Made by a program: the position numbers and the translations under genes | Notes under the pieces: generated by a model | Seen by the model: the letters and a program-made list of their open reading frames with translations, nothing else | Told to the model about the DNA's origin: nothing | Database searches by the model: none | In this document: one piece after another, positions 1-63,665 of the stretch | Layout of the letters: each line of letters starts with the position of its first letter | Numbering within the stretch: the first letter of the stretch is position 1 | Assembly (NCBI RefSeq): GCF_048594605.1 | Contig: NZ_JBMDWV010000364.1 | Location: 5,916 to 69,915 of the forward strand | Source of the DNA: Spirosoma sp. | GTDB lineage: Bacteria; Bacteroidota; Bacteroidia; Cytophagales; Spirosomataceae | Length of the DNA stretch: 64,000 nt | Direction: 5' to 3'

Positions 1-1081
1 GCATGAGGTGGTTTGCCGAATCGCCAATGCAGTGCGTATTGGCCTGGAAGCTTGAATTGTAAAGCAGTTTTGTAACCCGTTCTAATTCAGTGGGGCTCAG
101 TAGCAGGAAGCCGCCTGTTTCCGGGCGGTCGCTGTACGGTTGCCGTAGGCAGGCTCCACGCGAACCGAGCGCCCCATCGGCATAAAGCTTAAACGAACGT
201 ACCGTCAGTCGATCCGTCTGAAACGGACCGCGTTTTAGAAAATAATTCAGATTAGGTTCGCCCAGGCTAATCATAGCATAGTCCCGGATTTTGAGTTTGC
301 CAGTACGTTGCAAGCTGTCAATCAGGTTAATCTCATCGGGGCTAATGCCAGCGTCGGAAACGGTAGTTAGTCCCATGGCTACGCAGGCTTTTTGCGCATT
401 CAGCAACATCCGACTTTTGTCGTTATTATCAGGCTGTGGAATCACACGCCTGATAAGCAGCATGGCGTTATCGACCAATACGCCCGTTGGCTGTCCATCC
501 TGCAAGACTACTTCTCCACCCGGAAGTTTTGATCCGGCTGTTACGTTGGCTAGTCGGAGCGCTTTGGAATTAACAAGCAGGGCGTGCCCGTCTACACGCA
601 TCAGAACCACGGGTATATTGGGGAACGTAGCGTCCAGTTTTTCTTTTGTCGGAAAAACTTTATCGTCCCAGTCGTTTTGGTCCCAGCCTCTACCCGAAAG
701 CCATAATACGTTCGGGTGATTGTGGTAAAACGTTTTTAATCGCTCAATAACTTCATCGTACGACGTAGCGCCCACCAGATCGGCCTGGTCGAGAACTTGG
801 CCCAAACCCAGAAAGTGGGAATGTGGATCGTAAAAACCAGGATAAACGGGCGCGCCGGCCAGATCAGCTGTTGACGCGGCTTCGTACTCACTGTCCAGCG
901 CCTGAGCGGAGCCTACTGCCAGAAATTTTCCGTCTTTGACCACAAAAGCATCGGCGGTCGAAAAACTCGAATCTGCCGTGTAAACGCGGGCATTGGTAAC
1001 GAAAAGATCGGCTTTTTTCTTAAAAGAACAGCTCGATAGAAGGAAGGATAGAGTAGAAAATAGGAGTAATAACTGTTTCAT
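1..1081 (-). CDS. Amidohydrolase 3 (YtcJ-like) lipoprotein, partial: 3' end lies outside the window
   Basis: Not in the ORF track because there is no stop in the window. Hand translation from ATG at 1081 gives MKQLLLLFSTLSFLLSSCSFKKKADLFVTNARVYT (lipobox LSSC), then PGFYDPHSH, RVDGHALLVNSKAL, FKLYADGALGSRGA and THCIGD, all typical YtcJ-family motifs. Confidence 0.9.
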   Translation of the reverse strand, partial: MKQLLLLFSTLSFLLSSCSFKKKADLFVTNARVYTADSSFSTADAFVVKDGKFLAVGSAQALDSEYEAASTADLAGAPVYPGFYDPHSHFLGLGQVLDQADLVGATSYDEVIERLKTFYHNHPNVLWLSGRGWDQNDWDDKVFPTKEKLDATFPNIPVVLMRVDGHALLVNSKALRLANVTAGSKLPGGEVVLQDGQPTGVLVDNAMLLIRRVIPQPDNNDKSRMLLNAQKACVAMGLTTVSDAGISPDEINLIDSLQRTGKLKIRDYAMISLGEPNLNYFLKRGPFQTDRLTVRSFKLYADGALGSRGACLRQPYSDRPETGGFLLLSPTELERVTKLLYNSSFQANTHCIGDSANHLM

Positions 1082-1150
1082 ACCAGTTAAAGGAAAGCTC
1101 GCAAGATAATCGAAAGGTTAATAAGCTGATGAGACAATAGCAGATTCTTG

Positions 1151-1158
1151 TATTTTTG
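1151..1158 (+). promoter_or_regulatory. Bacteroidota housekeeping -7 element (TAnnTTTG) upstream of the TolC gene
   Basis: TATTTTTG about 30 nt before the ATG at 1188. Confidence 0.55.
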
Positions 1159-1187
1159 CTTTAATCGTTCTTGTTACTACGTATTCA

Positions 1188-2576
1188 ATGAAGCTCAGCA
1201 GTTGGATTTTATTCTCTTTTCTGCCGTTATCGGTATTTGCTCAACAGCCTCAAAATGCTATTCAACGTGCGCAGCAACGCACTTATACAATGGCTACGTT
1301 ACCTCAGCCGGGTGAGACCCTGACGCTACAACAGGCTATTGCACAGGCTGTTGAAAATAATTATCAAATTCATATCAATCGTTCGCAGGAAGAAATTGCC
1401 CGTAATAACTATACGAAAGGAAACGCGGGATACTTACCGTCGTTGACATTTAATGCTACGTCGAATGGGGGGCTGCAAAGTTTCCGGCAAACGTTTATTG
1501 ACAATATTCGACCGCCACAGACGGCAAATGGTATTTTCAACCGTACGTCTAATTTGGGAATTAATCTCAATTACACGGTTTTTAATGGATTTGCACGCCG
1601 AACGGTTTATACGCAGCTTCAGCAGCTGCTCCAGATCAGTACCGTAAATACCCGGGCAAACGTAGAAGCAACAATGGCGAGCGTGGCCACGAGTTATTAC
1701 GACGTAGTGCGCCAGTTACAACGGCTGATTGCGTTCAGTCAGGCATTGGATATTTCGCGTGAACGGCGCGACTTGGCGCGGGCCAACTACGAAGTTGGGG
1801 CACGTTCGAAAGTTGATTTCCTAAGCGCCCAGGTTGATTTTAATACGGATAGTGCTGCGCTGCTTTCGCAGGAACAGGCGTTACGTAACGCTAAAATTGT
1901 GCTGAACACATTGCTGATTCGCGACCCGCAAACGGAATTTTCCGTTCGTGATTCGATCATTGCCCGGCCTGATCTGCAACTGGCTCCGCTTCAGCAATCT
2001 TTAACCCAAAACAACCCGCAACTGGTTGCGGCTGTGCTCAACCGGAATTTTACAGATCTGAATATACAGATTGCCAATGCGGCACAGTTACCGTTGATTA
2101 CGGCGCAAACGGGTTATAACTATCAGCTTCAGGATAACCAGGGTGGTTTTGGCGTGGCCACCGGTCGAACCCGGGCTTTAACCTATAGTGTTGTGGCATC
2201 AATCCCGATTTTTAATGGCTATAACCTGAAACGTCAGATTCAGAATGCACGCGTTAATACGATTATTGCTCAGGATCAGGAGCAGAATCAGCGTTTACAG
2301 CTTCAGTCGGCGCTTAGTCAAACATATCAGGCGTATCAGAATAATCTGCAGCTATTAAATCTGGAAGTGCTGAATAATCAGCTGGCGAACCAGAACGTTG
2401 AGATCGCCTATGATCGTTACCGTATCGGAAACTCTACCTTTGTCGAATTTCGAGACGTACAACGTAACGCAATCAACGCCCAAACCCGGCTAATCGAAGC
2501 AGAGTACACGGCAAAAGCTGCCGAAATCGAATTGCTACGTCTGAGTAGCACCATTTCTCAGGATCTTGGTCAATAA
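1188..2576 (+). CDS. TolC family outer membrane efflux protein
   Basis: 462 aa with signal peptide. LTLQQAIAQAVENN start, A.YLPSL and .QLPLITA repeats, IPIFNG, and C-terminal Y..G.S...E pattern show the two-repeat OEP architecture. Confidence 0.92.
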   Translation: MKLSSWILFSFLPLSVFAQQPQNAIQRAQQRTYTMATLPQPGETLTLQQAIAQAVENNYQIHINRSQEEIARNNYTKGNAGYLPSLTFNATSNGGLQSFRQTFIDNIRPPQTANGIFNRTSNLGINLNYTVFNGFARRTVYTQLQQLLQISTVNTRANVEATMASVATSYYDVVRQLQRLIAFSQALDISRERRDLARANYEVGARSKVDFLSAQVDFNTDSAALLSQEQALRNAKIVLNTLLIRDPQTEFSVRDSIIARPDLQLAPLQQSLTQNNPQLVAAVLNRNFTDLNIQIANAAQLPLITAQTGYNYQLQDNQGGFGVATGRTRALTYSVVASIPIFNGYNLKRQIQNARVNTIIAQDQEQNQRLQLQSALSQTYQAYQNNLQLLNLEVLNNQLANQNVEIAYDRYRIGNSTFVEFRDVQRNAINAQTRLIEAEYTAKAAEIELLRLSSTISQDLGQ

Positions 2577-2605
2577 ATAGCTCATCTGAATTAAATACTG
2601 GATTT

Positions 2606-2642
2606 AAAAAAGCGGACTGATCCACGATCAGTCCGCTTTTTT
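2606..2642. terminator. Intrinsic terminator, bidirectional form
   Basis: AAAAAAGCGGACTGATC-cac-GATCAGTCCGCTTTTTT, a perfect 17-bp inverted repeat 30 nt after the TolC stop. Confidence 0.9.
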
Positions 2643-2867
2643 ATTGTCTTCTTTTTCGCGTAATCGAATAAAAAGAGACGCAAAATGGCATATAGATATA
2701 GGTAATTGTTTGCTATAATATTCTTTGGTAGATAAAATGTTTATTTTAATTAGAAAATAGTATTGAATTACGGGTATAAAGTATAGATTCTGCTGGCTAT
2801 ATTTTGATATGTTAAAATTTTGTATCAATCTTCGAGTATTTAGCCCGCGCCTTTGATAAATACCTGT

Positions 2868-5800
2868 ATGATAAAAATTTACACGTCCGTCCTTGCCCGG
2901 ATGATAACCGGCAAAATAGGAATAGCCTTCGTCGCGGCTTTTCTGCTACCAACACTCGTTACGGCTCAATTTCAGATCAATTTTCCCGTTTCGCGTATTG
3001 TCTTTCAGCGAAATAATGCCAATCAGGCAATGGTGCCGTTCAGTGCTATCCCTACGGCTGCCGTTACGCAGCTTAAAGTGCGTTTAGTAGTTCGACAGGG
3101 AGGAGTAACTACCGGCTGGACAACGCTTACACCTACGAACGGTGTGATTTCAGGCAGTGTGCCTGCGGTTCAGGGAGGATGGTACGATCTGGAGGCCGAA
3201 GCTTTTAACGGCAGTATAAGCCTGGGTATAAAACGCGTACAGCGGGTAGGGGTGGGCGAGGTGCTACTGGTATCCGGTCAATCGAATGCTCAGGGATTTT
3301 CCTCAACTATAGGAGCGGCTGATGATCGGGTATCGTGTGTTGATTTTTACAGCAATGACATAAGAGAGTTTCGCATGCCTCTGGTATTCAGTCAATTGTC
3401 TAATACGGCTCGGGTAGGCCCAACCAATGCACTTTATATTTACGGGATGCTGGGCGATAAGCTTGTACAACGCCTTGGGGTGCCTGTTCTTCTGTACGGA
3501 GCTGCTTGGGGCGGCACATCCTCTTCGCAGTGGCGGCAATCGGCAGAAGGAAATCTGACAATCCCGGAATCGGCGCAGTGGGGTGGGGCTGATGAACTGA
3601 TGCCTTACCGAGCGATCAGGGCAACGTTGAATCACTACGTTCAGCGAACAGGGCTACGCGGGATTTTCTGGCATCAGGGCGAATCAGACAAAGGTTTATC
3701 GGGTACTGCTTATGTCAGCAATCTGAAAAAGGTAATCGAGATTAGTCGTCAGGACGTAGGAAGCTCGACATTAGCCTGGATTGTCTCGCGCGCTTCCTGG
3801 CTTGACGGGTGGGGCGACAATAATATCATACAGGCTCAGAATCAGGTAATTGCCGAGATGCCCTATTGTTATCCAGGGCCAAATACAGACGTGTATGACA
3901 ATAGCTACCGACGGGATCAGACGCATTTCCTGGAGTCTTTTTATCCGCAGCTGGCTCAAATCTGGAACGACGCCCTAACCGATACCTTTTTCCAGCAGTC
4001 AACGCCTTACGTTTTATCGACCGAGCCACCACGTATCACGGTGGGAATGCCTCAGCCAGCGTATCAATACACGAATGGACATCTGGTTATTCCTTTCATG
4101 GATGAGTCGACCGTTCGTAATAAACTGCCTACCGTATATACAGCTCAGTTAGTTTCTCTGACAGGGCAGTTCATTACAAATCTGGGTAGCAGCACGAGCA
4201 GCCCAATGCGGGTTACACTTCCGGGAAACTCCACAGGAACGTACCGTGTTCGGGTGGTTTCATCTATAAATGGCGCTGTTTCGAGCCTCAGTCCGCCCAT
4301 TAGCATCTTTACACCTACGTACGCAATGGGAACGGGTTCGGGCTTGATTGGCGAATACATCAGTGGGATTGAGCCGAATGGCCCTGTACTGCATACGCAA
4401 CTGGATGGCCCTCTGGATTTAACCTGGTTTAGAGCGGATAACGGGGGCCCTACACCGTTTATGCCGATTCGTGATTACGTAGTGCGCTGGACGGGCCAGG
4501 TCGAAGCACCCGTTACGGGCACGTACACCATTAAAGCGGCCAACGACGATGGATCGCGTATCTGGATCAATGATCAGTTGATTGTTGATGACTGGGCCAG
4601 CCATCCCTGGGCGAACACCAAGAAAGGCCAGGTTACCTTACAGGCTAACCAGCGATACAATATTAAGATTGAGCTGTTGCAACGATGGTTTGATGCGCAA
4701 GTGCGCTTGCAATGGGTTGTGCCAGGCACTTCGAACGCCGTCTACATTCCTAAGGACCGCCTGTACCCGGCCTTACTCCCCTACATACCTGAGGCCGAAC
4801 CCATGGAAGTTGTGTTTCCCCGGCAACGTACTGTATTTCAGAGAAGTGTGAACAACGTAGCGCAGGTTACAATTGCTGGAACCTGCCCGACCAGAACCGA
4901 ACGTATTGAAATCCGGGTATCGCCGACAATAGATAGTTACGGCCAAAACAGCGATGCCTTTGTTCTGCTGGATAATCAGCCCGCCAACGGATTTTTTTCA
5001 GGAAAAATTAACATAACGGGGGGGTGGTATAACCTGGATGTTCGGGCAATTGCACAGAATCAGGTCATCTGTCATACCCGTGTGACTCCGGTTGGGGTAG
5101 GCGAGGTATTTGTTATTGCGGGCGAGGCAAATGCACAGGGCGTTACACCTATTCGGTCTGTCGCAGCGGCTATGGATACACGGGTCAACTGCGTTCCGCA
5201 TTACAATTACACCGACACAACGCGTTTGCCTGTTCCGCCATTGTTTAACTGGATCGCTGATGGTGAAACGGCCATTGGCCCTCACGGCAATACAGCCTGG
5301 TGCTGGAGCGAACTGGGGGATATATTGACAAAGCGTCTAAATGTTCCTGTCCTGTTTTATAATACCGCCTGGGCAGGTACAACCGTTCGGAACTGGCGCG
5401 AAAGTATGGAACAAGGTAATACGACAATTGGCGGAAATGCCTTACCGGCGGGTATGCCTTATAGTAATCTCAAACGTGTGTTGCAGGATTACGTGCCTTT
5501 AACTGGGTTGAGGGCCGTGCTGTGGCAGCAAGGCGAAACAGAATATTACTCGGCCAATCCGCAGGCTACTAATTATGCTGCTGATCTACAGGCCATAATT
5601 GCCCGCACTCGGCTAGATTCGCGTTCTGCTGAACTTCCCTGGTTAGTGGCCCGCGCTTCTGCCGACAATACGACATCGCAGCTGTATCCGTCGGGAAGTT
5701 ATGAACCCGTTACGAATCAGCAAAATAACGTAATTCAGACGGTTGCCAAAGTAATGGCAGGCCCCATTGTCGATACGATCCAGATGCCCCGACCGGATGG

Positions 5801-6773
5801 CAAACATTTGCAGGGAGCAGGCCTAAGTCGACTGGCTGCGGCCTGGAATAATGCCCTCACAACGACGGTATGGAATACGTCGCCTGTGCTTTCGATGACG
5901 CCGGTTGTGAGTGATTTACGTCTGTCGGCACAAGTGACCAACCGGGTCCAGTCGGTAGGAACTGATTTTCAGACATCTGTAACGGTGTGGAATGAAGGGC
6001 CTGTAGCCGTAAGCAACGCAGTAGTACGTTGCCTGCTGCCCAATAATCTACAGTTCGTTAACAGTACGTCAATGACTTATCAGGCGGGTAATCTCCTGGC
6101 AATTATCGCCAACATAGCCGCCAGGGGAAGTGCTACGTTGTCATTTACAGCGCGTATGCAGCAACCAGGGGCGTACCGAATGGCTGCCGAAATCGTTCGC
6201 GTCGACCAACTGGATCTGGATTCAAGGCCCAACACCAGTATCGGTAATGGCGAGGACGATGTAGCCTGGATAGATTTCCGCACTCTGGAGAACTCATCCG
6301 ACTTTTTTACTGTAATGCCGTCGCCCAATGCGCCATTGTTACCAGTAGTATCGAGCGGTCAGCCGCTGCCTGATCCGAATAAGGTAGATCTAAGTCTTCG
6401 GTTAGTAAGCAATAGTCTGATCGTTACGGCCAGCAATCCAGTATCGGTAAGCCTGATTGTGACGAATACAGGTGCTCAACCTGCTCAGAACGTGCAGATT
6501 GGTTGTTCTTTGCCAGCAGGATTAACGTTTAGCAGTAGTGCCAACATGAGTTTGTCAGGCAATACGGTACGAGGGACGATCCCGAGTATTCCGGCCGGTG
6601 GGCAGGGACTGTTGCATTTTACTATCACGCCCAACGGTACTGGGAACTGGAATCTACAGGCGCAAATTGAAGCGACTTCACCAACGGATGCCGATTCAAC
6701 GCCGAATAATGGCTTCGCTAATGGCGAGGACGATGTTGCTACGCTGAATCTTCAAACGCTGCAGGTTCCTTAA
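2868..6773 (+). CDS. Secreted multidomain protein: SGNH/CE6-like (SASA) esterase - PA14 - second SASA-like domain - 2x DUF11
   Basis: Domain 1 has GQSNA, WHQGES and DQTH. PA14 region YVVRWTGQVEAPVTGTYTIKAANDDGSRIWIND. Domain 2 has GEANA, WQQGET and DGKH. Two DUF11-like repeats (DL.L......V.N.G...A.NV....LP..L.F). Start is ATG 2868 or 2901; the track starts at TTG 2853. Confidence 0.85.
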   Translation: MIKIYTSVLARMITGKIGIAFVAAFLLPTLVTAQFQINFPVSRIVFQRNNANQAMVPFSAIPTAAVTQLKVRLVVRQGGVTTGWTTLTPTNGVISGSVPAVQGGWYDLEAEAFNGSISLGIKRVQRVGVGEVLLVSGQSNAQGFSSTIGAADDRVSCVDFYSNDIREFRMPLVFSQLSNTARVGPTNALYIYGMLGDKLVQRLGVPVLLYGAAWGGTSSSQWRQSAEGNLTIPESAQWGGADELMPYRAIRATLNHYVQRTGLRGIFWHQGESDKGLSGTAYVSNLKKVIEISRQDVGSSTLAWIVSRASWLDGWGDNNIIQAQNQVIAEMPYCYPGPNTDVYDNSYRRDQTHFLESFYPQLAQIWNDALTDTFFQQSTPYVLSTEPPRITVGMPQPAYQYTNGHLVIPFMDESTVRNKLPTVYTAQLVSLTGQFITNLGSSTSSPMRVTLPGNSTGTYRVRVVSSINGAVSSLSPPISIFTPTYAMGTGSGLIGEYISGIEPNGPVLHTQLDGPLDLTWFRADNGGPTPFMPIRDYVVRWTGQVEAPVTGTYTIKAANDDGSRIWINDQLIVDDWASHPWANTKKGQVTLQANQRYNIKIELLQRWFDAQVRLQWVVPGTSNAVYIPKDRLYPALLPYIPEAEPMEVVFPRQRTVFQRSVNNVAQVTIAGTCPTRTERIEIRVSPTIDSYGQNSDAFVLLDNQPANGFFSGKINITGGWYNLDVRAIAQNQVICHTRVTPVGVGEVFVIAGEANAQGVTPIRSVAAAMDTRVNCVPHYNYTDTTRLPVPPLFNWIADGETAIGPHGNTAWCWSELGDILTKRLNVPVLFYNTAWAGTTVRNWRESMEQGNTTIGGNALPAGMPYSNLKRVLQDYVPLTGLRAVLWQQGETEYYSANPQATNYAADLQAIIARTRLDSRSAELPWLVARASADNTTSQLYPSGSYEPVTNQQNNVIQTVAKVMAGPIVDTIQMPRPDGKHLQGAGLSRLAAAWNNALTTTVWNTSPVLSMTPVVSDLRLSAQVTNRVQSVGTDFQTSVTVWNEGPVAVSNAVVRCLLPNNLQFVNSTSMTYQAGNLLAIIANIAARGSATLSFTARMQQPGAYRMAAEIVRVDQLDLDSRPNTSIGNGEDDVAWIDFRTLENSSDFFTVMPSPNAPLLPVVSSGQPLPDPNKVDLSLRLVSNSLIVTASNPVSVSLIVTNTGAQPAQNVQIGCSLPAGLTFSSSANMSLSGNTVRGTIPSIPAGGQGLLHFTITPNGTGNWNLQAQIEATSPTDADSTPNNGFANGEDDVATLNLQTLQVP

Positions 6774-6780
6774 CGAACGT

Positions 6781-6813
6781 ATTGTTGCCAGAAAGGCTCT
6801 TTCTGGCAACAAT
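6781..6813. terminator. Hairpin between convergent genes
   Basis: ATTGTTGCCAGAAAG-gct-CTTTCTGGCAACAAT, a perfect 15-bp stem between the stops at 6773 and 6818. Confidence 0.8.
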
Positions 6814-6817
6814 TGGA

Positions 6818-7861
6818 TTAAGATTTCTTATTCGGATCGAGTACTACGTGCCGAACGCGGTTACGTTTCCAGGTGTAAGTGATATGTACCAGTCCGTCAG
6901 TTGATTGAATGACAGCTGGATACGAATATTCGCCTGGCTCATTTTCGAGTACAGCCAGTGTTTTCCAGTTTTTGCCATCATCCGAAATGGCGACATCAAG
7001 AGGAGTTCGCGGACCGTTTTTACCGTTATTCGTTGTCGTGGGATTATAAACCAGAACCTGCCGACCATCTTTCAACGTAACGGCATCCGTTCCTGAGTTA
7101 GGATTTGGCAGCGATGTTTTCTCTAAAGCTGACCAGGTTTTCCCGTTGTCTTTCGACCAGCTTTCCAGAATATAACCGACCTTCTGGCTGCGGCAAAGTA
7201 CCTGAAGCTGACCGTTCGGATGAAATAAAATACTTGGCTGAATCGCTCCATCCGTAATGCCGTCGTTGATTGGAGCCGTTTTTTGCCATGTTTTTCCCCA
7301 GTCGCTGGTCTGTTCGAAATGAACGCGCCAATTATGATCTTCTGAGCTGGTTGGGCATAACAAAACGCCTGAGGATAATAAAACGGGCTTGTTTTTAATT
7401 GGGCCTAGAATCCCCTCCGGTAGTCGCTCGGCCTCTGACCAGGTCTTTCCGTTGTCTTTTGAACGCTTAAGCAAACCCCACCAGGTTGAAGGACTTGGCC
7501 CTACTTTATAGAACAGAATCAGTTCGCCACCAGGGCGCTGGAACAAGACCGGATTCCAGCAGGGTAGTCGCTTCCCATCGGGTTGCACCCCCGTTGCTAC
7601 TTCCACGGGCGTTGTCCAGCCGCTTTTGGTCAGACTACTCACCCAGATACCTACGTCGGGGTGACGCTCGTGGGTTCCGCCAAACCAGGATGCTATGAGC
7701 CCCTGGGGCGTTTCCGCTATGGTCGATGCATGACATTCAGGAAATGGCGCTTTTTCATAAATCCATTCCTTCTTTAAGATCGCCGGATTGGTGGGCTGTG
7801 CATAAAGTTGTTGGATCGACAGAGAAAAGAGAATCAGTAGAAGACGAAAGTTAACGTTCAT
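6818..7861 (-). CDS. BNR-repeat (Asp-box) sialidase-like protein
   Basis: Asp boxes SKDNGKTW, TSDWGKTW, SKDNGKTW and SDDGKNW. CHASTI..WFGGT, PCWNPVLF, GPIKNKP and YSYPAVI motifs. Signal peptide. Confidence 0.9.
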   Translation of the reverse strand: MNVNFRLLLILFSLSIQQLYAQPTNPAILKKEWIYEKAPFPECHASTIAETPQGLIASWFGGTHERHPDVGIWVSSLTKSGWTTPVEVATGVQPDGKRLPCWNPVLFQRPGGELILFYKVGPSPSTWWGLLKRSKDNGKTWSEAERLPEGILGPIKNKPVLLSSGVLLCPTSSEDHNWRVHFEQTSDWGKTWQKTAPINDGITDGAIQPSILFHPNGQLQVLCRSQKVGYILESWSKDNGKTWSALEKTSLPNPNSGTDAVTLKDGRQVLVYNPTTTNNGKNGPRTPLDVAISDDGKNWKTLAVLENEPGEYSYPAVIQSTDGLVHITYTWKRNRVRHVVLDPNKKS

Positions 7862-8739: not shown

Positions 8740-8746
8740 ACGGGAA

Positions 8747-9714: not shown

Positions 9715-9754
9715 CAGCTGTTAGTTTTTGTTTTTAGGCAATATCTAAATCATA

Positions 9755-11669: not shown

Positions 11670-11676
11670 ATTGCTG

Positions 11677-55788: not shown

Positions 55789-55928
55789 GATTACATTGTT
55801 TTTTGGTTAGTGAAAAGACGCGAAAGCAATGGACCTTGATTAGACTAGTAAATACCATACAGCTCTCTATCCACGGTTCTTTTTTGTTTTGAACAGGACA
55901 AAGGTGTATGGAAGAAAAGACAATAAAT

Positions 55929-55942
55929 TTAACCCAGGTTAA
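55929..55942. promoter_or_regulatory. Candidate operator of the adjacent Crp/Fnr-type regulator
   Basis: Near-palindrome TTAACCCAGGTTAA, 23 bp from a minus-strand CACCTTTG -7 element (55899-55906). Confidence 0.55.
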
Positions 55943-55961
55943 AATCGTAAAGCAATGATAC

Positions 55962-56549
55962 TTACCGGCTTGCCATTCTTTTTCGAATGCGGCTCAACGA
56001 TGGCCCCTGAATACCGAGGTAAGACGAGATGTGATAAAGCGGAACGGCATTATAGATATCAGGATGCTGCTGCATCAGGTCCAGATAGCGTTGTTCGGGC
56101 GTTTGAAAGAGGGCGTCTTCCATCCGGTTCATAGCTGCCATAAACGCGCGTTCGGCCACTAGCCTCCCAAAATGTTCCCACTGATGAGATTGCTGATAAA
56201 GTTGATTCAGGGATTCAATCTGGATATATAGAATGATTGAATCCGTCATCGACTCTGTATGGTAATTGCAGGGCGTTTGCGTGACAAAACTTTTGTAGGA
56301 AACGATTAATTGGTGTTTAGAGAAAAAGAAAACATTTTTTTCTTCGCCAGTGGCATCGTTAACGTAGTACGCTCTGAAAATGCCGTCGAGAATAAAACCG
56401 ACGTGCTTACAGACACTTCTGTACTCGTTGAAAAACTCGCCCTTTTTATAGTGTTTTAGATGCCAGGAGGAAGCAGATAAAACAAATTCCTGTTCATTGA
56501 TTCCCGCAAAGTCATGTAATGCATGTTTCAGTAAGTCAATGTTGCTCAT
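55962..56549 (-). CDS. Crp/Fnr family transcriptional regulator
   Basis: FILDGIFRAYY and C-terminal ISSYLGIQGPSLSRIRK. Confidence 0.93.
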   Translation of the reverse strand: MSNIDLLKHALHDFAGINEQEFVLSASSWHLKHYKKGEFFNEYRSVCKHVGFILDGIFRAYYVNDATGEEKNVFFFSKHQLIVSYKSFVTQTPCNYHTESMTDSIILYIQIESLNQLYQQSHQWEHFGRLVAERAFMAAMNRMEDALFQTPEQRYLDLMQQHPDIYNAVPLYHISSYLGIQGPSLSRIRKRMASR

Positions 56550-56660
56550 TTTCTGTAAGTTGTACGCTGGTGGCTACAAGTAAAGATAGCAACATAGATA
56601 ATTCCTACGGCGTCTGATTAGTATTTAATGGAAAATGGTAGCCAACGTAGCGAAACTGAA

Positions 56661-57551
56661 TTACGGTTTTGCGCCAACAAATTTTAATAGATCCTGGTAG
56701 ATAATATTCGTTTCCCAGAATAGCTGAGTGACCATGCCAATGTGTTTCTTACCTGGCAAAACCTTGAATTCATATTTCACGCCTAACTCCTGAAGACGCT
56801 GGCGGAACCGTCGGGTGCTTTTTTGGATGCCAGGGTATGTGTGCTCGCCTACGTAAATTAACATCGGCGGGCAGTCTTGTTTAACGTAGTAAAGAGCCGA
56901 TACATCGTGCCAGCGCGTTGGATTTTTGCCAAATGGCACCAGGTATTTCTCATCGCCGGGATACTCCATTTTAGTCAGGTAATCGAACATATCCAAACCA
57001 CCCGGATCGTCGAGAATGGCGCCATTAATTGGGTTCTGCGTCAGCCCGATTTTCGTGAACAATTGATTGTCAGTCATTAATAAAGCCGCTAGTCCGCCCC
57101 CCGCCGAATGTCCCATTACAAAAAGCCGTTTCGGATCACCACCGTAACCAGCAATATGTTTCTGAGTCCAGCTTACAGCGAGGGCGCAATCGTTGGCCAT
57201 ATCGGGTACCTGCACTTTGGGCGCGAGCCGGTAATTGATCAGTACGGCGACGACGTTTTGCTTCGCTAGTCTCCGGCCAATGAAGGCATAGAGATTTTTA
57301 CTGCCACTCTCCCACGACCCGCCGTGAATGAATATCACCACTGGCCGAAGAACGGATTGATCCTGTTGAGGCTGGTAAATATCGAGTCGGTGTCGGTCCG
57401 TATCAAAACCGGGCGTATTGGGTGTTACGTAAGCGACGTCTTTTATGCGGTGACTAGCTCTGGCAATAGCGTATTCGTGGATAAACAGGATCACCACACC
57501 AGTGATAAACAGAACCGTCAGGATTGGCCAGAGTAATCGAAACAAACGCAT
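56661..57551 (-). CDS. Alpha/beta hydrolase (HSL/carboxylesterase-like)
   Basis: LDIYQP, FIHGGSW, INYRLAP and MGHSAGG. Confidence 0.92.
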   Translation of the reverse strand: MRLFRLLWPILTVLFITGVVILFIHEYAIARASHRIKDVAYVTPNTPGFDTDRHRLDIYQPQQDQSVLRPVVIFIHGGSWESGSKNLYAFIGRRLAKQNVVAVLINYRLAPKVQVPDMANDCALAVSWTQKHIAGYGGDPKRLFVMGHSAGGGLAALLMTDNQLFTKIGLTQNPINGAILDDPGGLDMFDYLTKMEYPGDEKYLVPFGKNPTRWHDVSALYYVKQDCPPMLIYVGEHTYPGIQKSTRRFRQRLQELGVKYEFKVLPGKKHIGMVTQLFWETNIIYQDLLKFVGAKP

Positions 57552-57684
57552 GTGCAGAATCTTACGTATTGCGGTGGTCTGACTTCAGAATCAGGCAACG
57601 TAGCACGTATTAACGCTATACGTTCGTCCCTCGTCAACTCATACATACCGCTAAAACAGGATTCTGGATTGCTACGTAGTGTTT

Positions 57685-58341
57685 TTATAATTGCTGACAA
57701 AGACGATTGTAGGTGGCTACCATTTCGCCAAGGAAGCGCCAGTCGCGACGAGCGGCCGTTGGATAGTTACGAATATAAAGCGGACAATCGCCGAAAAGCC
57801 GCTCGTGAACGGTTTCGATTTCTCCCCGTTTTGCAATGAACGATTCGCTCCCGTTCTTCACGGCAACGTAACTCAGATCCAGCCGATCGACCTCAAATAC
57901 AAAATTGCCGAACGTATATTCCGTTTTTGATTTCCAGCCCGACGGGTCGAAATATAAAGCGATGGCACCGCCCGGTGGCGTTAGCCGCTCCAGTAACATA
58001 GGTTTGCTGTTCCGGCGCGGATTTGGAACACGCTCAAAAATAACCATTTCACGCTCACGGGGAATACTGCCGGTTGAATAAGCAAAATCGGGAATACGTT
58101 GGGCAATGAGTTGTATGTCATCTCCTTTCAGCTTGATTTTCGTATTATCGGCCGACCGGATGACTATGCTGGCAGGCGAGTCGTTCACCAGCGAACCGAT
58201 ACGTACCTGCCCACGAATCGTATCGTTTTGCAGCGTTACTACGTAGCCATCTGTCCACATAGTAACAGCACCCAGGGGAATGTATTGCCCCTTGCCGATC
58301 AGGCTGATACTTAACGTAACAATAACAAAAAAAGCTTTCAT
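57685..58341 (-). CDS. Hypothetical secreted protein
   Basis: Signal peptide and GYVVTLQNDTIRGQV N-terminal motif, common in Bacteroidota hypothetical proteins. Confidence 0.75.
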   Translation of the reverse strand: MKAFFVIVTLSISLIGKGQYIPLGAVTMWTDGYVVTLQNDTIRGQVRIGSLVNDSPASIVIRSADNTKIKLKGDDIQLIAQRIPDFAYSTGSIPREREMVIFERVPNPRRNSKPMLLERLTPPGGAIALYFDPSGWKSKTEYTFGNFVFEVDRLDLSYVAVKNGSESFIAKRGEIETVHERLFGDCPLYIRNYPTAARRDWRFLGEMVATYNRLCQQL

Positions 58342-58465
58342 GGCTAAATCAATAGTTTGATGCCATTAAAGCTAGAATGCCTTATCCATCGGACGAATGA
58401 ACGCTTGACTGAACTGTAAAAAGTATTGGATGAAGTGAGTACAATAGAGACTGAAATTGTGCAGA

Positions 58466-60223
58466 CTATAACGTAAAGCTCATTTGTCCGATGAGTTGAG
58501 GGCCTACCTTTGCTGTAAACCAATACAAACCCGGTCCTGTCAACGTAACGGCTTCCTGAACCTGACTGGTGTTAACGTACTGTTTTTGAAAAACGACAGC
58601 GCCCTGCGCCGTGGTCACCTGCACATCAATCGTAGTGGGAGTAGGAACGGCAATTCTCATCGTTGCCGAATTGTTGGCTGGGTTGGGGTAAAGCACCATC
58701 TGCCCTTCAAAGCGCAGGTCCTGATTGTCGACGTTGACAGCATATGTGTCTGTGAGACAACCCTGCGGATCACTCACCGTATACGTCGTGGAAACAGTTG
58801 GCGATACGGTGATGGTTCGGCTTGTCTGACCAGTATTCCACACATAATCACCCGGCCACGACGCCCTGAGTGTCAAGGATTCATTTGGATTAATAGAAAA
58901 TGTTTGCTGCCGGTTTACCTGTTTTATCATTGTAAACCGATCTTTCACCGTACCGTCAGAAGCCACCCACTGGGCGTCTAACCGATTGTCGTTTACATCA
59001 ATTAGCATAGAACCGCCCTGCTGATTATTTGCATAAACCATGGCCGGGTGCGGATAACCGGTTGCCTGCCCGCCTAACTGTCCACCGCTACCCGCTACTA
59101 CGTAGATAGTGCCCGTCTGTTTGTTACTAATTGGGCAGGAGTTGGGCGACCCATCATAACGGGCAGTGCTTGTAGAAACGGCATGCTGACCAAGATTAAA
59201 CGTAGTGGCCGATCCATAATGCCCCTTCAGTAAATACGTTCGTTCATAAACATGGCTATGTCCAGATAGTACAAGGTCTACGTTATAGCGTTCCAGAATA
59301 GGGACAAGTTTCTGCCGTAGCTGAATCTGATCGTCGAAAAAGTCAGAATCACGCGAACCTTTGCTATAAGGCGGGTGATGGAAAAAGACAATCGTCCAGG
59401 GCAACTGATTCGCAGCCAGATCCTGTTTGAGCCACTGAGCTTGTCTGCCTGTTGTGTCGTATAAACGCGTGCCATCATTTCCTTCAGAATCCATCGAAAT
59501 GATGTGAACATTCGCATAATCAAATGAATAATTAAGCTTCGAGCCTGACGCAATTCCGCCCGCTTCAGCCTCCTGTGGAACCGTAATGATGTTGAAGTAG
59601 TCGATGTTCAGGTTGGTTGGTACGTCAACATATTCGTGGTTCCCGGCGGTCGGCCAGAACGGTAAGTGTTTCAGCAAGTCGGTGTAAATTGTGAATACAT
59701 TTTGTTGATATTGAAGATCGGTGCCCTGACCATACGCGTTGTCGCCCAGCCAAAGCCAGATATCGGCAGGGCGACTCTGGGTGGCCTGACGGTACCGTTG
59801 AAGTACGTCCAACTGATTCGCCGTTCCACTGCCAAAATCACCCAGCGCCCAGATCCGTACCGGTACGGCTGTTCCGGCAGGAGGGGAGGTTTGAAAATAT
59901 TGATCACTAGAAACCATCAAATCTCCAGCAGTTGACCCAATCGAGTAGTAATAGCGGGTGGAGGGTTGCAGGCCCGTCAGCGTAACAATATGCTCTGTTG
60001 TGAACGTAGCGTCGGTAATCTGCTGATTTAGTTGATCAAGACTAGCGCCGAAGCGAACACGGCTATTGGTCGGCTGGTCGGTGCGCCAGCGAATGGTGAT
60101 TCCTGTTGGTGTAACGGCCTGCAGATAAGGTGAACGTAAAACACTTTGCCCTCGTGACGTAACAGAAAGCAGCGTCAAGTAAACCAAAACTACAAGGCAA
60201 CGTAGTAAAATACGTATTATCAT
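58466..60223 (-). CDS. Purple acid phosphatase-like metallophosphoesterase with T9SS C-terminal domain
   Basis: FN3-like PYLQ..TPT...IRW, GDFG, GDNAY, GNHE, FHHPPY, SGHSH.YER and C-terminal VLYPNPA. Confidence 0.92.
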   Translation of the reverse strand: MIIRILLRCLVVLVYLTLLSVTSRGQSVLRSPYLQAVTPTGITIRWRTDQPTNSRVRFGASLDQLNQQITDATFTTEHIVTLTGLQPSTRYYYSIGSTAGDLMVSSDQYFQTSPPAGTAVPVRIWALGDFGSGTANQLDVLQRYRQATQSRPADIWLWLGDNAYGQGTDLQYQQNVFTIYTDLLKHLPFWPTAGNHEYVDVPTNLNIDYFNIITVPQEAEAGGIASGSKLNYSFDYANVHIISMDSEGNDGTRLYDTTGRQAQWLKQDLAANQLPWTIVFFHHPPYSKGSRDSDFFDDQIQLRQKLVPILERYNVDLVLSGHSHVYERTYLLKGHYGSATTFNLGQHAVSTSTARYDGSPNSCPISNKQTGTIYVVAGSGGQLGGQATGYPHPAMVYANNQQGGSMLIDVNDNRLDAQWVASDGTVKDRFTMIKQVNRQQTFSINPNESLTLRASWPGDYVWNTGQTSRTITVSPTVSTTYTVSDPQGCLTDTYAVNVDNQDLRFEGQMVLYPNPANNSATMRIAVPTPTTIDVQVTTAQGAVVFQKQYVNTSQVQEAVTLTGPGLYWFTAKVGPQLIGQMSFTL

Positions 60224-60421
60224 ACGTAGTATTAATAAAGTTTGCTAAAGTTATCCTATTTAGATAGAAGTTTACATTTCTTGACACAAGATAAATCTCG
60301 CTAACTATACAGTTAATCCTACCAGTTACTCATTGGGGCTACAGGGGCCTTTATTCAATACATTATCTTCATGGCAGTTTATCGGGCTTTCCGTTTCTAA
60401 CCACATCTAATCAGTCGAAGT

Positions 60422-60970
60422 ATGTTTACTACGTTGCTTGCTTTATTGCTAACTTCCCCATTGCTATTAGGCTCTGTGTACGGGAGTTCTCCGCCGGATA
60501 TTATGAGCGGAGGATTGCACGGAATTCTGCCGGTTGTAAATCAGAAAGTCACCTATTCGGAGGTGATCGACTGTGGGAGTGTGTCGCAGTCCGATTTGTT
60601 CCGACGGGCGAGACTATGGGTCGTACAATCGGGCCATGCATCTAACGAGCTGTTTGCTTTGAGCGATAAAGAGACCGGCGATCTGGCTGGTCGGTTTGTT
60701 CAGACGGTTGTTTTGCCACGTTCAGAAACCTCTGCCGGTGGAATCTATACGTTTCGCTACAGCTACCTGATTGAGTGTGCAAATCGTAAGTATCGGGCCA
60801 CGCTTACGCAGATTGAGGTAGATGAAGGAAACGGTCGATTTTCGCCCATCGAAACCTATCGTCAAAAGAATGAGAAAGACCTTCAGGCGATGAGTCAGGA
60901 ACTTGACAGGCAACTCAAAAACGTGCTGACTTCGCTTCAGGAAAGCGTGAAAAATTACAAGTCATTCTGA
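60422..60970 (+). CDS. DUF4468-like secreted protein
   Basis: LPVVNQKVTYSEVI, LFRRARLW and DKETG. Confidence 0.7.
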   Translation: MFTTLLALLLTSPLLLGSVYGSSPPDIMSGGLHGILPVVNQKVTYSEVIDCGSVSQSDLFRRARLWVVQSGHASNELFALSDKETGDLAGRFVQTVVLPRSETSAGGIYTFRYSYLIECANRKYRATLTQIEVDEGNGRFSPIETYRQKNEKDLQAMSQELDRQLKNVLTSLQESVKNYKSF

Positions 60971-60993
60971 TACGTCCAGCCCTGACACTACGT

Positions 60994-61497
60994 ATGAATC
61001 GCACGGTTTCTTATCTGTTAGGACCTGAGCTGGCCTGGATCCTGATGCTTGCTATTACAGGGTTAATTATTTTTCTGAGCCAGCCGTTGCCAGTCAATGA
61101 TCACGACAAACTATTGAATTTTGGGTGGTTCATGCCTGTGCTTGGGGTGTTACTGGCTTTCGCTCCCTTATTTTGGGGACTTGGTAATAAATGGTGGTGG
61201 TTAGCCAGAATTGTCGTCGCTAGTCTGATAGGCGTCGGTTTATTGGTTGGCTTGCTGTGTCAGGCTGCTCGTTATAACGATAGTCGGGATTCCGGAATTG
61301 GCACAGCATTCGTACTATTTATGGGCGTAGGCTGGTTTAGCCTGTTTGGATTAGGATTGATAGCCGCACTCTGTTTTCTGGCGAAATGGCCTTTCCTGAC
61401 GGTCTATAAGTGGGTATTGATTATTATTGGCGCTTTTACGCTTCTGGGCGGCCTGATTGGATGGATTGCTTCGTTTGACGGGAGTAAAAGCTCCTGA
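60994..61497 (+). CDS. Hypothetical multi-pass membrane protein
   Basis: Five hydrophobic segments. Confidence 0.75.
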   Translation: MNRTVSYLLGPELAWILMLAITGLIIFLSQPLPVNDHDKLLNFGWFMPVLGVLLAFAPLFWGLGNKWWWLARIVVASLIGVGLLVGLLCQAARYNDSRDSGIGTAFVLFMGVGWFSLFGLGLIAALCFLAKWPFLTVYKWVLIIIGAFTLLGGLIGWIASFDGSKSS

Positions 61498-61586
61498 CGA
61501 TTGCTGCACCACTTAAGCGGTTAAACAGTCTGTTAATTGATTGAGTTATTAGATCAATGACCATCACTACTAATTAACAGATCGTT

Positions 61587-61796
61587 ATGCCTTGGACAAA
61601 AGACAACTATCCGGTATCGCTCAAATATTTCATGGCTCCAGTACGTAATAAAGCCATCGAAATTGCCAACGCATTACTTAATGAAGGTGCGGAAGAAGAT
61701 CGGGCTATTGCCATTGCTACGTCCAAAGCCGAAGAATGGGCTGAGAATAGAGGAATGAAAGTTCGCAAGGCCAATGCGCCGGAAAACAAAAAATGA
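61587..61796 (+). CDS. Small YdaT/DUF2188-like protein
   Basis: MPW.K..YP.S, RNKAIEIANALL.EG..E.RAIAIA...A.EW. Confidence 0.8.
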   Translation: MPWTKDNYPVSLKYFMAPVRNKAIEIANALLNEGAEEDRAIAIATSKAEEWAENRGMKVRKANAPENKK

Positions 61797-61854
61797 GCCG
61801 TACGTCTTCTGAGTATGGCTCAACTCTTTTCTAATCGTATACGGCCTTCTGCTA

Positions 61855-62547
61855 ATGTCTGATCCTGTTCAACCCTTTGATTGGGAACGCATGTTTATTC
61901 ATGATTTCCCGTGGGCTTATCTTGGTGAGGTTGCTTTCCGAACCGTTTTTATGTTTGGTGTTTTGCTGACTGCGCTGACCGTTTCGGGAAAGCGCGAGGT
62001 TCGGCAATTATCCATTTATGAATTGGTACTGCTCATTGGCCTTGGTTCGGCTGCGGGCGATCCTATGTTCTATCATGACGTACCACTTGCGTCGGCAGTT
62101 GTGGTTTTTACCGTAATGATGGGATGCTATAAACTCGCTACGTTCATTAGCGATCGGAACAAGAAAGTGCGCGATGTCCTCGAAGGAAAGCCAGTTTATG
62201 TGATCGAGAATGGATGCATCCTTACGCAAAATTTTAGCCAGGAAGATCTGGGAATGGAAGAGTTACTTTCTGATCTGCGCGTAGAAGGAATTGAGCAGCT
62301 TGGGCAGGTACGCACGGCCATTCTGGAGCCTAACGGTCAGCTCAGCGTATTTCCATTTGAAGACGCCGATATTCGACCGGGATTGCCAATTCTGCCCAAT
62401 GAACTGAGAAAGAAGGGCAAACGTATTGAGCAACCGGGTAAGTATGCCTGTTGCACATGCGGCAATGTCCAGATGTTCGAGTCTCCTGCCGAAGAGGCTC
62501 ATTGTCAGAAATGCGATCAGATTACCTGGGTGAAAGCAGTTACCTAA
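61855..62547 (+). CDS. DUF421 (YetF-like) membrane protein with C-terminal Cys cluster
   Basis: SGKREVRQLS, GSAAGDPM, LEGKP..VIENG, AILEPNGQLSV and CCTCG...CQKC. Confidence 0.9.
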   Translation: MSDPVQPFDWERMFIHDFPWAYLGEVAFRTVFMFGVLLTALTVSGKREVRQLSIYELVLLIGLGSAAGDPMFYHDVPLASAVVVFTVMMGCYKLATFISDRNKKVRDVLEGKPVYVIENGCILTQNFSQEDLGMEELLSDLRVEGIEQLGQVRTAILEPNGQLSVFPFEDADIRPGLPILPNELRKKGKRIEQPGKYACCTCGNVQMFESPAEEAHCQKCDQITWVKAVT

Positions 62548-62570
62548 ACGCTACGTAGCGCCGTGCTACG

Positions 62571-63665
62571 TTACGCCAGGACCTTTTGCGTGGGTTTCTT
62601 GACTACACTTTTTACCTGGTCCTTTAAAAATTTAAGCAGTAGTTTTTCCACTCCATCCAAACCATTCGGGCTGGTTTTTCGAAATCGGTTTTTCTGCTGG
62701 ATATACGCGGTTAAATCCTGACACTCATAAGCATCCAGAATCTGGGGATGAACGTAGTGTTTCCGGCATACCGTGCGTGTATTTCCGAGTTTGTGAGCTA
62801 CTTCATCCAGCACTGTGTTGACATTTTTTTTCAGCTCTTTTTCCGTTGAACAGGGCTCCAGCTCTACCAGAAGACGTAACGCATTGACGGTTCCGGCCCA
62901 GGTGCGAAAATCCTTGGCCGAGAAATCATCGCCCATCGTTTCGCGCAGGTAATCATTGACCATGCCTGAATCGATGGGATGCCGGTCACCGTTTTCGTCG
63001 AGATACTGAAATAATTCTTTGCCCGGAATGTCACGACATGCTTTTACTAACCGAGCCAGCCGACGGTCGCACAGATCAATTTCGTGATAGATACCTTTTT
63101 TACCCTTGAAACTAAAACGGATACTGTTCCCTTCCAGTTTTACGTGTCGGTCTTTGAGCGTTGTCAGACCATAAGAGCCATTTTCTTTTTCGTAAGACGC
63201 GTTCCCGATTCGAATAAGTGTTTGCTCCATTACGCTCAAAGCAACGGCAATAACCTTCTCGCGTGATAATCCAGCCTTTTTCAGATCAGTGGCCAAACGT
63301 GTCCGGAGGAGGGGCAATGCTTCGCCAAACGCTTCCATCCTGAAAAATTTTGTTTCGCTGCGTATGGCATTCCATTTGGTGTGATAACGATATTGTTTTC
63401 GGTTTTTTGAGTCAATTCCCGTTGCCTGTAAATGGCTGTTGGCTTTGGGGCTAATCCAGACGTTCTCCCATACCGGTGGTAGAGCCATTGTCCGAATCCG
63501 ATCTAATGTTTCCTGGTCATTCAACTTGTTGCCATCCCGGTCATAATACGCAAAATGGTCGCCGTTACGTTGCCGCGAAATACCAGGCGTGGTATCGTTT
63601 ATATAAACAAGGCGTGCTGCCTGAGCTGCCTTGATAGGGTCGTGCGTTAGTTGCAGTAAATCCAC
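62571..63665 (-). CDS. DNA topoisomerase IB (bacterial, poxvirus-like)
   Basis: GIDSKNRKQYRY, IRIGN..Y, GLTTL, FKGKKG, AKDFRTWAGT and LGNT.TVCRKHYVHP (catalytic Tyr). Probable start GTG 63665; the track starts at TTG 63695. Confidence 0.95.
   Translation of the reverse strand: MDLLQLTHDPIKAAQAARLVYINDTTPGISRQRNGDHFAYYDRDGNKLNDQETLDRIRTMALPPVWENVWISPKANSHLQATGIDSKNRKQYRYHTKWNAIRSETKFFRMEAFGEALPLLRTRLATDLKKAGLSREKVIAVALSVMEQTLIRIGNASYEKENGSYGLTTLKDRHVKLEGNSIRFSFKGKKGIYHEIDLCDRRLARLVKACRDIPGKELFQYLDENGDRHPIDSGMVNDYLRETMGDDFSAKDFRTWAGTVNALRLLVELEPCSTEKELKKNVNTVLDEVAHKLGNTRTVCRKHYVHPQILDAYECQDLTAYIQQKNRFRKTSPNGLDGVEKLLLKFLKDQVKSVVKKPTQKVLA

Follow-up and report, generated by a model that had tools for sequence, protein, structure and literature searches.

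YRNTACGT, an asymmetric eight-base word enriched across the genomes of a Spirosoma subclade

The stretch of Spirosoma (Cytophagales) DNA considered here, 64,000 bp in length with a G+C content of 47.4% and hereafter called the window, raises the question of why one short word should recur throughout it in large excess, inside genes as well as between them. A first-pass annotation had described the word as RCTACGT, or as the palindrome CTACGTAG, and had likened it to the highly iterated palindrome HIP1 of the cyanobacteria. Our analyses show that the enriched unit is the asymmetric word 5'-Y-R-N-T-A-C-G-T-3' (YRNTACGT), of which RCTACGT and CTACGTAG are subsets or overlaps. We examine below how strong the enrichment is, where else it occurs, what kind of bias generates it and how it relates to other iterated words in bacteria.

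Excess of the word and delimitation of its unit

The hexamer CTACGT and its complement ACGTAG were found 66 and 72 times in the window, giving 138 copies where about 125 had first been counted. The expectation of about 31 copies at equal base frequencies agrees with the zero-order figure of 31, and 100 dinucleotide-preserving shuffles of the window yielded 21.8 ± 4.8 copies (maximum 34). The longer forms RCTACGT or ACGTAGY account for 122 of the 138 copies, in line with the remark that most copies are so extended, and CTACGTAG occurs eight times, exactly where the first-pass annotation had placed it, vs 0.43 ± 0.71 times in the shuffles. The core of the signal is TACGT, which together with its complement ACGTA is present in 394 copies vs a zero-order expectation of 131 (326 distinct sites, on average 195 bp apart) and is the most over-represented 5-mer in the window. 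The word YRNTACGT was identified 259 times (197..63702), whereas the dinucleotide shuffles contained 26.1 ± 5.6 copies, corresponding to an approximately 10-fold excess.

The null models comprised zero-order, first-order and maximal-order Markov models, dinucleotide-preserving shuffles, shuffles of synonymous codons within each gene and shuffles of codon order. In coding DNA, the synonymous-codon shuffles gave 129 ± 11 copies of TACGT, 25 ± 5 of CTACGT and 36.9 ± 5.4 of YRNTACGT, vs the 332 (z = 19), 106 and 209 (z = 32) that were observed. Intergenic TACGT was found 55 times vs 16 under a first-order Markov null, and the 7.8 kb of intergenic DNA held 44 copies of YRNTACGT, at an observed-to-expected ratio (o/e) of 10.5. 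The density of YRNTACGT is thus higher in intergenic than in coding DNA (5.66 vs 3.72 per kb), and likewise for TACGT (7.1 vs 5.9 per kb). As the first-pass annotation had suggested, the motif is made in genes by synonymous codon choice and is also placed between genes. The excess persists under codon- and dinucleotide-preserving nulls, in intergenic DNA taken by itself and beyond the window, in three other genomes of the same clade sampled at unrelated or partly syntenic 22-kb loci.

Codon or dipeptide usage was rejected as the cause by the synonymous and codon-order shuffles (z 19-32) and by the intergenic excess. Taken more broadly, an artefact of codon or dipeptide usage, base composition, local repeats, assembly error or some peculiarity of the window is refuted by the failure of these shuffles, by the intergenic copies and by the occurrence of the signature in four independent assemblies, namely the metagenome window, two isolates and one metagenome-assembled genome (MAG) from ENA. 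Furthermore, no repeat family was found, the copies being isolated 8-mers. We give an artefact next to no credence and consider the enrichment confirmed as real and robust. By extrapolation, a genome of 7 Mb would carry about 20-28 thousand copies of YRNTACGT.

A maximal-order Markov scan of k-mers showed an excess in ACGT (1.29), TACGT (1.39) and CTAC (1.37), with nothing conspicuous at k>=6. All four NTACGT extensions are common in the window (A 90, C 138, G 63, T 103), and CTACGT is therefore just one of them. The information in the flanks of TACGT is one-sided, with a pyrimidine at position -3 and a purine at position -2, and at intergenic sites these are found in 83% and 75% of the cases, respectively. 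Since the prefix is present intergenically and missing at the TACGT sites of signature-free sister species, it does not arise from codon structure. In a pool of four signature-bearing genomes (130 kb), 477 copies of YRNTACGT were counted vs 66 expected (7.3x), whereas the ratio in the outgroup was 0.79x, and RRN-, YYN- and RYN-TACGT reached only 1.1-1.7x in the ingroup pool. There, the accepted prefixes rank in the order CG (12.5x, corresponding to CGNTACGT), CA (7.0x), TG (6.2x) and TA (3.9x), with C favored and G disfavored at position -1 and G disfavored at position +5. The word as a whole contains only about 12 bits. The enriched unit, TACGT with a Y-R step two bases upstream, extends further than RCTACGT or CTACGTAG at one end and less far at the other.

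Nor is the palindrome the iterated unit, as had been proposed. A strict iterated palindrome of the HIP1 type, built around a palindromic methyltransferase site such as CTACGTAG or TACGTA, could draw on the eight copies of CTACGTAG vs 0.4 expected and on the o/e of about 4 for TACGTA. However, TACGTA is depleted relative to its sub-words TACGT and ACGTA (136 observed, 188 expected, 0.72 of the Markov expectation), and the both-strand count of CTACGTAG is 16 vs the 16.9 expected from its 7-mers, or eight sites vs 8.5 if the C-prefix is independent on the two sides. Likewise, the 12-mer YRNTACGTANYR was found 37 times vs 39.4 expected. None of these palindromes exceeds what its two overlapping half-words predict, and the information at -3 and -2 is confined to one side. 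The strict palindrome is thereby refuted as a structure, and as an explanation it is hardly more credible than an artefact.

Occurrence in Spirosoma and nature of the bias

The gene content of the window is typical of the Cytophagia, with ADOP permeases and their PadR regulators, a type IX secretion system (T9SS) sorting tail, GH95, TonB-dependent receptors and a bacterial type IB topoisomerase (TopIB), while scans of the window for Rfam families and tRNAs gave no matches. Its S9 peptidase is 88% identical to the homolog in Spirosoma sp. KNUC1025 and 87% identical to that in S. validum, and the named S9 matches were all Spirosoma first, followed by Nibrella and Larkinella; the GH95 probe matched only distant taxa (<=68% identity). 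DNA of the window was also encountered in a metagenome run from straw. Sister genomes were sampled through their S9 neighborhoods, at about 22 kb each, and the comparison set consisted of 171 loci in all, including 80 loci from many phyla that were fetched with GH95.

The o/e of TACGT is 3.01 and the density of YRNTACGT 4.05 per kb in the window, with corresponding values of 2.60 and 2.76 per kb in Spirosoma sp. KNUC1025, 2.37 and 3.39 per kb in S. validum and 2.99 and 3.70 per kb in P0004, a contig from an ENA MAG. Two genomes are intermediate, the P0036 MAG (locus L171; 1.40 and 0.81 per kb) and S. oryzicola (locus L169; 1.43 and 0.90 per kb). The values are low in S. linguale (0.78 and 0.23 per kb) and S. 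foliorum (0.63 and 0.27 per kb), and TACGT is at 0.92 in Larkinella and 0.54 in Pontibacter. Thus, congeneric Spirosoma differ 12-18 fold in the density of the word, and intermediates exist. A neighbor-joining tree of the S9 proteins places the window in a single clade with KNUC1025, S. validum, P0004 and P0036, and the signature in P0004 was predicted from this tree before its DNA was obtained, a prediction that held. S. oryzicola falls outside the main clade and yet has a weak signature. The weak signatures in S. oryzicola and P0036 could mean that the responsible factor was acquired independently or recently, or that the signature is in decay.

Over the 171 loci, the number of YRNTACGT copies in a locus was between 0 and 11, apart from three ingroup loci with 61, 75 and 82 copies and the two intermediate ones with 18 and 20. 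In nearly all of the 80 GH95 loci, the o/e of TACGT lies between 0.0 and 0.9, its highest value being 1.48, and TACGT is thus normally avoided outside the signature clade. A genome-wide iterated word that is not strand-skewed in a Bacteroidota genome, as had been claimed for the window, was in this way borne out for Spirosoma. We found no description in the literature of YRNTACGT, of such a signature in Spirosoma or the Bacteroidota, or of Spirosoma methylomes, in agreement with the first-pass annotation, which knew of no description in this phylum.

Other deviations in related words were seen in this survey. In three metagenome contigs from distant, Bacteroidota-like organisms (L121, L147 and L152) the o/e of ACGT is 0.02-0.03, and in L121 that of CpG is 0.78, which suggests a strong, ACGT-specific avoidance at the opposite extreme to the Spirosoma clade. 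In Siphonobacter sp. BAB-5405 (L085), TACGTA is at 2.1 and GTAC at 1.8 of expectation, without the YRN prefix.

When all k-mers were contrasted between ingroup and outgroup, ACGTA/TACGT came out on top (z = 22), the runner-up (z = 8) contained the TACGT word, and the losses were diffuse. The neighbors that differ by one base in the central CG, namely TAAGT, TAGGT, TATGT, TACAT, TACCT and TACTT, are all at 0.61-0.86 of their outgroup levels, irrespective of whether they differ by a transition or a transversion. Within the YRN context, TATGT is not depleted (0.40 vs 0.35 in the outgroup) whereas TAGGT is (0.24 vs 0.58). A footprint of T:G-specific repair of the Vsr type was rejected on these grounds, as transversion neighbors are equally depleted and YRN-TATGT is not. 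Avoidance of pyrimidine dimers formed by UV light, which would favor alternating pyrimidines and purines, was also rejected, since the equally alternating TATGT and TACAT are depleted.

The effect on codon choice depends on context. In the ingroup, ACG accounts for 71% of the threonine codons between T and T and for 35% elsewhere (outgroup: 31% and 32-35%), TAC for 78% of the tyrosine codons before GT and 44% elsewhere (outgroup: 40% and 49%), GTA for 57% of the valine codons after NAC and 24% elsewhere (outgroup: 32% and 23%), and CGT for 51% of the arginine codons after NTA and 21% elsewhere (outgroup: 15% and 16%). The odds of choosing the synonymous codon that completes TACGT exceed those elsewhere by a factor of about 4-5, no matter which base is concerned, and are flat in the outgroup. 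This strong dependence of codon choice on context should be considered in analyses of codon usage and selection in these genomes.

The odds ratios per position relative to the outgroup are 6.3 at -3, 4.3 at -2 and 1.9 at -1, 6.3/10/12.6/12/6.9 over T-A-C-G-T and 1.5 at +5. This graded profile resembles the recognition profile of a DNA-binding protein, and the acceptance of any Y-R step at -3/-2 suggests, as far as can be judged from sequence, readout of a deformable step in duplex DNA. Taken together, the data show a weak and uniform directional force on the whole word that is clade-specific, strand-symmetric and independent of the kind of substitution, the reading frame and the coding status. 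That this represents a real, word-level and clade-specific drive on duplex DNA seems to us very probable.

At positions where the amino acid is conserved, 66% of the sites are retained within the clade vs 32% of control 5-mers in the same frames, although a persistent bias of the measured strength would yield the same figure without conservation of specific sites. Between clade and outgroup, the retention is 30% for sites and 30% for controls. Among the ingroup orthologs, 22 copies at amino-acid-conserved positions are shared vs 23 that are unique, that is, about half, and the third-position identity within the clade is about 0.52. The retention within the clade in combination with this low third-position identity implies that the force has persisted in several diverged species while individual copies turn over.

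Could the word simply mirror a mutation spectrum peculiar to the clade, in which an altered polymerase, damage or repair process, with no sequence-reading protein at work, turns TACGT contexts into sinks or cold spots for mutation? The turnover of sites would fit such a process, as would a signature that is diffuse, Poisson-distributed, strand-symmetric and found in every gene as well as in intergenic DNA. However, the inflow comes from transitions and transversions alike, the specificity spans seven positions over 8 bp with odds ratios of 4-13, and the T:G-specific footprint is absent. We know of no mutation spectrum with such long-range specificity for all kinds of substitutions, and we consider this explanation unlikely.

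Arrangement in the window and individual sites

The two strands are used equally. TACGT is found 198 times on the plus strand and 196 times on the minus strand, in line with the lack of strand skew noted in the first-pass annotation, and YRNTACGT 124 and 135 times in a window with a GC skew of +0.027, a weak skew that is the sole basis for assigning the window to a replichore. With respect to transcription, 165 copies of TACGT are on the coding and 167 on the template strand, and the strand counts of YRNTACGT in two sister loci are 29/32 (L081) and 33/42 (L167). A polar signal of the Chi or KOPS (FtsK-orienting polar sequence) type was rejected because of this lack of skew by GC skew or transcription, and the earlier remark that the word is not Chi- or KOPS-like in its polarity stands. 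Copies of TACGT occur in all six frames, with a preference for sense frame 2 and antisense frame 1 (88 each, vs 30-49 in each of the others), which shows coding constraints modulating where copies fit.

The spacing of TACGT follows a Poisson process (coefficient of variation (CV) 1.08), with a longest gap of 1367 bp that is within the random range of 896-1827 bp. The counts per gene likewise fit a Poisson distribution, nearly every gene carrying an excess. No short-range, helical or longer periodicity was detected in the window, where the histogram of pair distances is flat, and no habit of inverted pairs, the orientations of neighboring copies being random. We also considered local islands free of the word, indicative of recent transfers, and rejected them since neither the densities of individual genes nor the longest gaps depart from Poisson expectation.

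The first-pass annotation drew attention to a few places in particular. ACTACGT directly abuts the start codon of three genes, as described (Table 1), and the density of TACGT in the 30 nt upstream of starts in the window, where genes are longest open reading frame calls, is 16 per kb. This association did not recur in the sister loci, where the density ahead of 42 independently called genes is 5.6 per kb, and is therefore attributed to an ascertainment effect or chance. The codons CTA CGT AGY GAA at the end of both ADOP permeases were confirmed, each followed by a stop codon so that the proteins read KSLRSE*. The four copies reported near 54.9 kb are also present and coincide with a perfect inverted repeat of 22 nt that is predicted to fold into a hairpin (-47.4 kcal/mol, z = -8.4) with no U-tract. 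Copies of the core are located at both ends of the hairpin arms and in the loop, and the spacing of about 31 bp at this place is due to the geometry of the hairpin, not to a general periodicity. The hairpin may be a terminator or an element of the repetitive extragenic palindromic (REP) type.

Table 1. Coordinates of individual copies of the word and of other features of the window.
Position	Strand	Feature	Context
17585..17596		Double copy CGCTACGTAGCG containing CTACGTAG, back-to-back	Encodes C-terminal LRSE of ADOP permease 17580-20306(-)
23526..23537		Double copy CACTACGTAGTG, back-to-back	C-terminal LRSE of ADOP permease 23521-26181(-)
30349..30360		Intergenic double copy CACTACGTAGCA	Close upstream of NmrA-like gene 30363-31286(+)
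40874..40881		CTACGTAG with YR prefix on one side only	Within gene 40392-41090(+)
57670..57681		Intergenic double copy TGCTACGTAGTG	
58239..58246		CTACGTAG	Within gene 57685-58341(-)
59098..59105		CTACGTAG	Within metallophosphatase gene 58466-60223(-)
62549..62560		Double copy CGCTACGTAGCG	Between convergent genes 61855-62547(+) and 62571-63695(-)
26182..26189	-	TACTACGT	Adjoins ATG of permease 23521-26181(-)
60224..60231	-	TACTACGT	Adjoins ATG of gene 58466-60223(-)
60986..60993	+	CACTACGT	Adjoins ATG of gene 60994-61497(+)
54901..55000	-	Cluster of four core copies	3' of gene 55000-55788(-)
54933-54954 / 54978-54999		Arms of the 22-nt inverted repeat	Minus strand; hairpin 3' of gene 55000-55788(-)
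17580-20703	-	Cassette of PadR-family regulator and ADOP-family permease	Paralogous to 23521-26532
23521-26532	-	Cassette of PadR-family regulator and ADOP-family permease	Paralogous to 17580-20703
41295-43418		S9 peptidase	
46188-51788	+	1866-aa protein	
62571-63695	-	TopIB	

Some further features of these loci deserve mention. The two permeases belong to paralogous cassettes, in each of which a PadR-family regulator is followed by an ADOP-family duplicated permease with a "permease prefix domain 2." A protein of 1866 amino acids combines DUF7379, an LCAT-like lipase, a CHAT (caspase-like) protease and a TPR-S sensor, an architecture that suggests a defense or effector protein; its place beside the S9 peptidase/GH95 region is conserved in P0004 and S. 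validum. Several palindromes of 6 bp are avoided in the window, with one site each for CACGTG and GGATCC, values of 0.23-0.32 of the Markov expectation for GCCGGC, GGCGCC and ATCGAT and 0.45 for CGTACG; the o/e of CTAG is 0.2. This avoidance is consistent with pressure from restriction-modification systems. In KNUC1025, a protein of 562 amino acids that contains a pair of PLD-type domains and faintly matches the NgoFVII restriction-endonuclease family adjoins GH95 (L081, 15344-17032) and is missing at the corresponding place in the window.

Possible causes and relation to known systems

The first-pass annotation offered a methylation- or repair-driven motif, an uptake signal or a site for a nucleoid protein as explanations, and this remains the right set of options once a T:G-specific repair footprint is excluded. 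We favor the hypothesis that a protein peculiar to this Spirosoma subclade recognizes YRNTACGT on duplex DNA. Such a protein would recognize TACGT by direct readout and the preceding pyrimidine-purine step by its deformability, and a solitary DNA methyltransferase or a similar enzyme that binds DNA would be the likeliest candidate. It would tilt the outcome of mismatch repair or homologous recombination toward the strand or allele that carries the word, and copies would then build up to an equilibrium between mutation and drive. The logic would be the same as in the methylation "ratchet" proposed for HIP1 (PMC4390886) and in the molecular drive of uptake sequences (PMC1939737). We assign a probability of roughly 0.45 to a bias in repair or recombination as the cause, rather than direct selection or the mutation spectrum. 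A fuller scenario, in which a sequence-directed drive of repair or recombination arose newly within Spirosoma, maybe linked to methylation and maybe carried on a mobile gene, and wrote some 20-28 thousand 8-mers into each genome, is put forward only tentatively. The suggestion of a mobile gene is made because the weak signature is also seen in the phylogenetically separate S. oryzicola.

Several observations weigh against a bias in repair or recombination. No recognizing protein, methyltransferase or repair gene was found to be encoded in the window or the sister loci, and a degenerate, interrupted and asymmetric YR-N-TACGT is not a typical methyltransferase specificity. To our knowledge, methyl-directed mismatch repair is not known in the Bacteroidota. 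Furthermore, the clade is assigned from the tree of a single gene, S9, and about 22 kb per sister genome. Finally, direct weak selection predicts every sequence statistic equally well, and the two explanations cannot be told apart by the 2-fold retention of sites either. We considered the TopIB of the window, which is poxvirus-like, as the recognizing enzyme and rejected it. Its orthologs, with 71-89% identity, are widespread in Spirosoma, Nibrella, Rudanella, Larkinella and Tellurirhabdus, and in the first four of these genera they are widespread among TACGT-poor members.

Under direct weak selection, the word would be the site of a nucleoid-structuring protein or a Chi-like marker of "self" for a nuclease or recombinase, and its dense copies would protect or organize the DNA of the clade. 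The bias at the level of the word with its graded profile and the retention of sites within the clade at twice the control rate are compatible with this explanation, and a lineage-specific change would fit a recognition protein with altered specificity. Foreign DNA is mostly word-poor, with no more than 11 copies per 22 kb in about 160 loci, which would allow a good discrimination between self and non-self. Chi acts as a marker of self in the processing of DNA ends, where it attenuates degradation and stimulates recombination. YRNTACGT resembles Chi, which is read by RecBCD or AddAB, in that Chi words are short (5-8 nt), asymmetric, species-specific and several-fold over-represented, and a 3-10 fold enrichment is of the order of that for Chi in E. 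coli. However, the known words of the Chi and KOPS type follow the direction of replication, whereas YRNTACGT has no orientation bias by GC skew or transcription, which also sets it apart from KOPS and AIMS (architecture-imparting sequences) with their strong strand skew that switches at ori/ter. The spacing is that of a Poisson process and not even, although a density-dependent function might remove long gaps, and there is neither a reproducible positional preference nor a candidate protein. Direct selection is for these reasons a possible but rather doubtful explanation.

In E. coli, very-short-patch repair by Dcm and Vsr (CCWGG/CTAG) shifts oligonucleotide frequencies genome-wide. As in such a footprint, the site is raised and its neighbors are lowered across the genome of the Spirosoma clade. 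The difference is that only transition neighbors derived from T:G mismatches are affected there, whereas the transversion neighbors of YRNTACGT are depleted as much or more.

DNA uptake sequences (DUS) and uptake signal sequences (USS) are 9-12 bp long, enriched hundreds of fold and present at about one copy per kb. They are known as the DUS of Neisseria and the USS of the Pasteurellaceae, and their accumulation can be explained by molecular drive (PMC1939737, PMC3868556, PMC1626085). An analogous signal for natural transformation in Spirosoma would be driven by a bias at the cell surface, and YRNTACGT is indeed asymmetric, equally frequent on the two strands, found in coding and non-coding DNA, independent of the type of mutation and clade-specific in the manner of a "dialect." Drive by biased uptake is an established model (PMC1939737), and in Campylobacter uptake can depend on short motifs that are methylated (PMC8468864). 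However, a word of about 12 bits with a 7-12 fold enrichment differs from a 9-12-mer enriched hundreds of fold. Moreover, inverted pairs at terminators and a competence receptor belong to the DUS and USS, whereas the orientations of YRNTACGT are random and no habit of inverted pairs or terminators was seen. The literature gave no report of competence in Spirosoma. An uptake signal is accordingly considered improbable.

A further parallel is that with HIP1. In the cyanobacteria, the palindromic octamer GCGATCGC and the "alternate HIPs" are over-represented 15-300 fold (Elhai 2015 PMC4390886; Xu, Lawrence & Durand 2018 PMC5861425). HIP1 has cognate orphan methyltransferases and a periodicity of 10-90 kb, and a "ratchet" of methylation-biased repair is the leading idea for its origin, with the mechanism unresolved (PMC4390886, PMC5861425). 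It has also been tied to the efficiency of transformation in a methylation- and homology-dependent manner (bioRxiv 10.1101/2024.09.10.611283). Like HIP1, YRNTACGT is found genome-wide and on both strands, inside genes via codon choice and between genes, and it is lineage-specific, with relatives that lack the word or have another one. Its sites are also retained above controls within the clade, although a persistent bias alone would give the same figure. Unlike HIP1, it is asymmetric, partly degenerate and without palindromic excess, it belongs to a different phylum and it is Poisson-spaced within the 64-kb window. Its enrichment of 7.3x, 12.5x for CGNTACGT and about 10x relative to the shuffles, is below the 15-300 fold range of HIP1. 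The suggested HIP1-like signature is thus not a structural homolog of HIP1.

Hyper-abundant words such as HIP1, the DUS/USS and Chi are classic features of bacterial genomes that are understood only in part. Where HIP1 comes from and what it does has been under debate for some 30 years, in part owing to its great age and its presence throughout a phylum. In these soil-dwelling Spirosoma, the word appears to have originated recently and within the genus. Some cultured species carry it (S. validum, KNUC1025) and others lack it (S. linguale, S. foliorum), which provides a natural experiment, in which the association of gene presence or absence, or of alleles, across the genus could name the responsible factor. 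If a drive system proves to be the true explanation, it would show for the first time, in mechanistic terms, how hyper-abundant words of the HIP kind come about. YRNTACGT is also a sharp marker for taxonomy and binning of the clade, and as foreign DNA is word-poor it could flag recent horizontal transfers. Functionally, the word belongs with HIP1, the DUS/USS and Chi, yet it lacks defining features of each of them.

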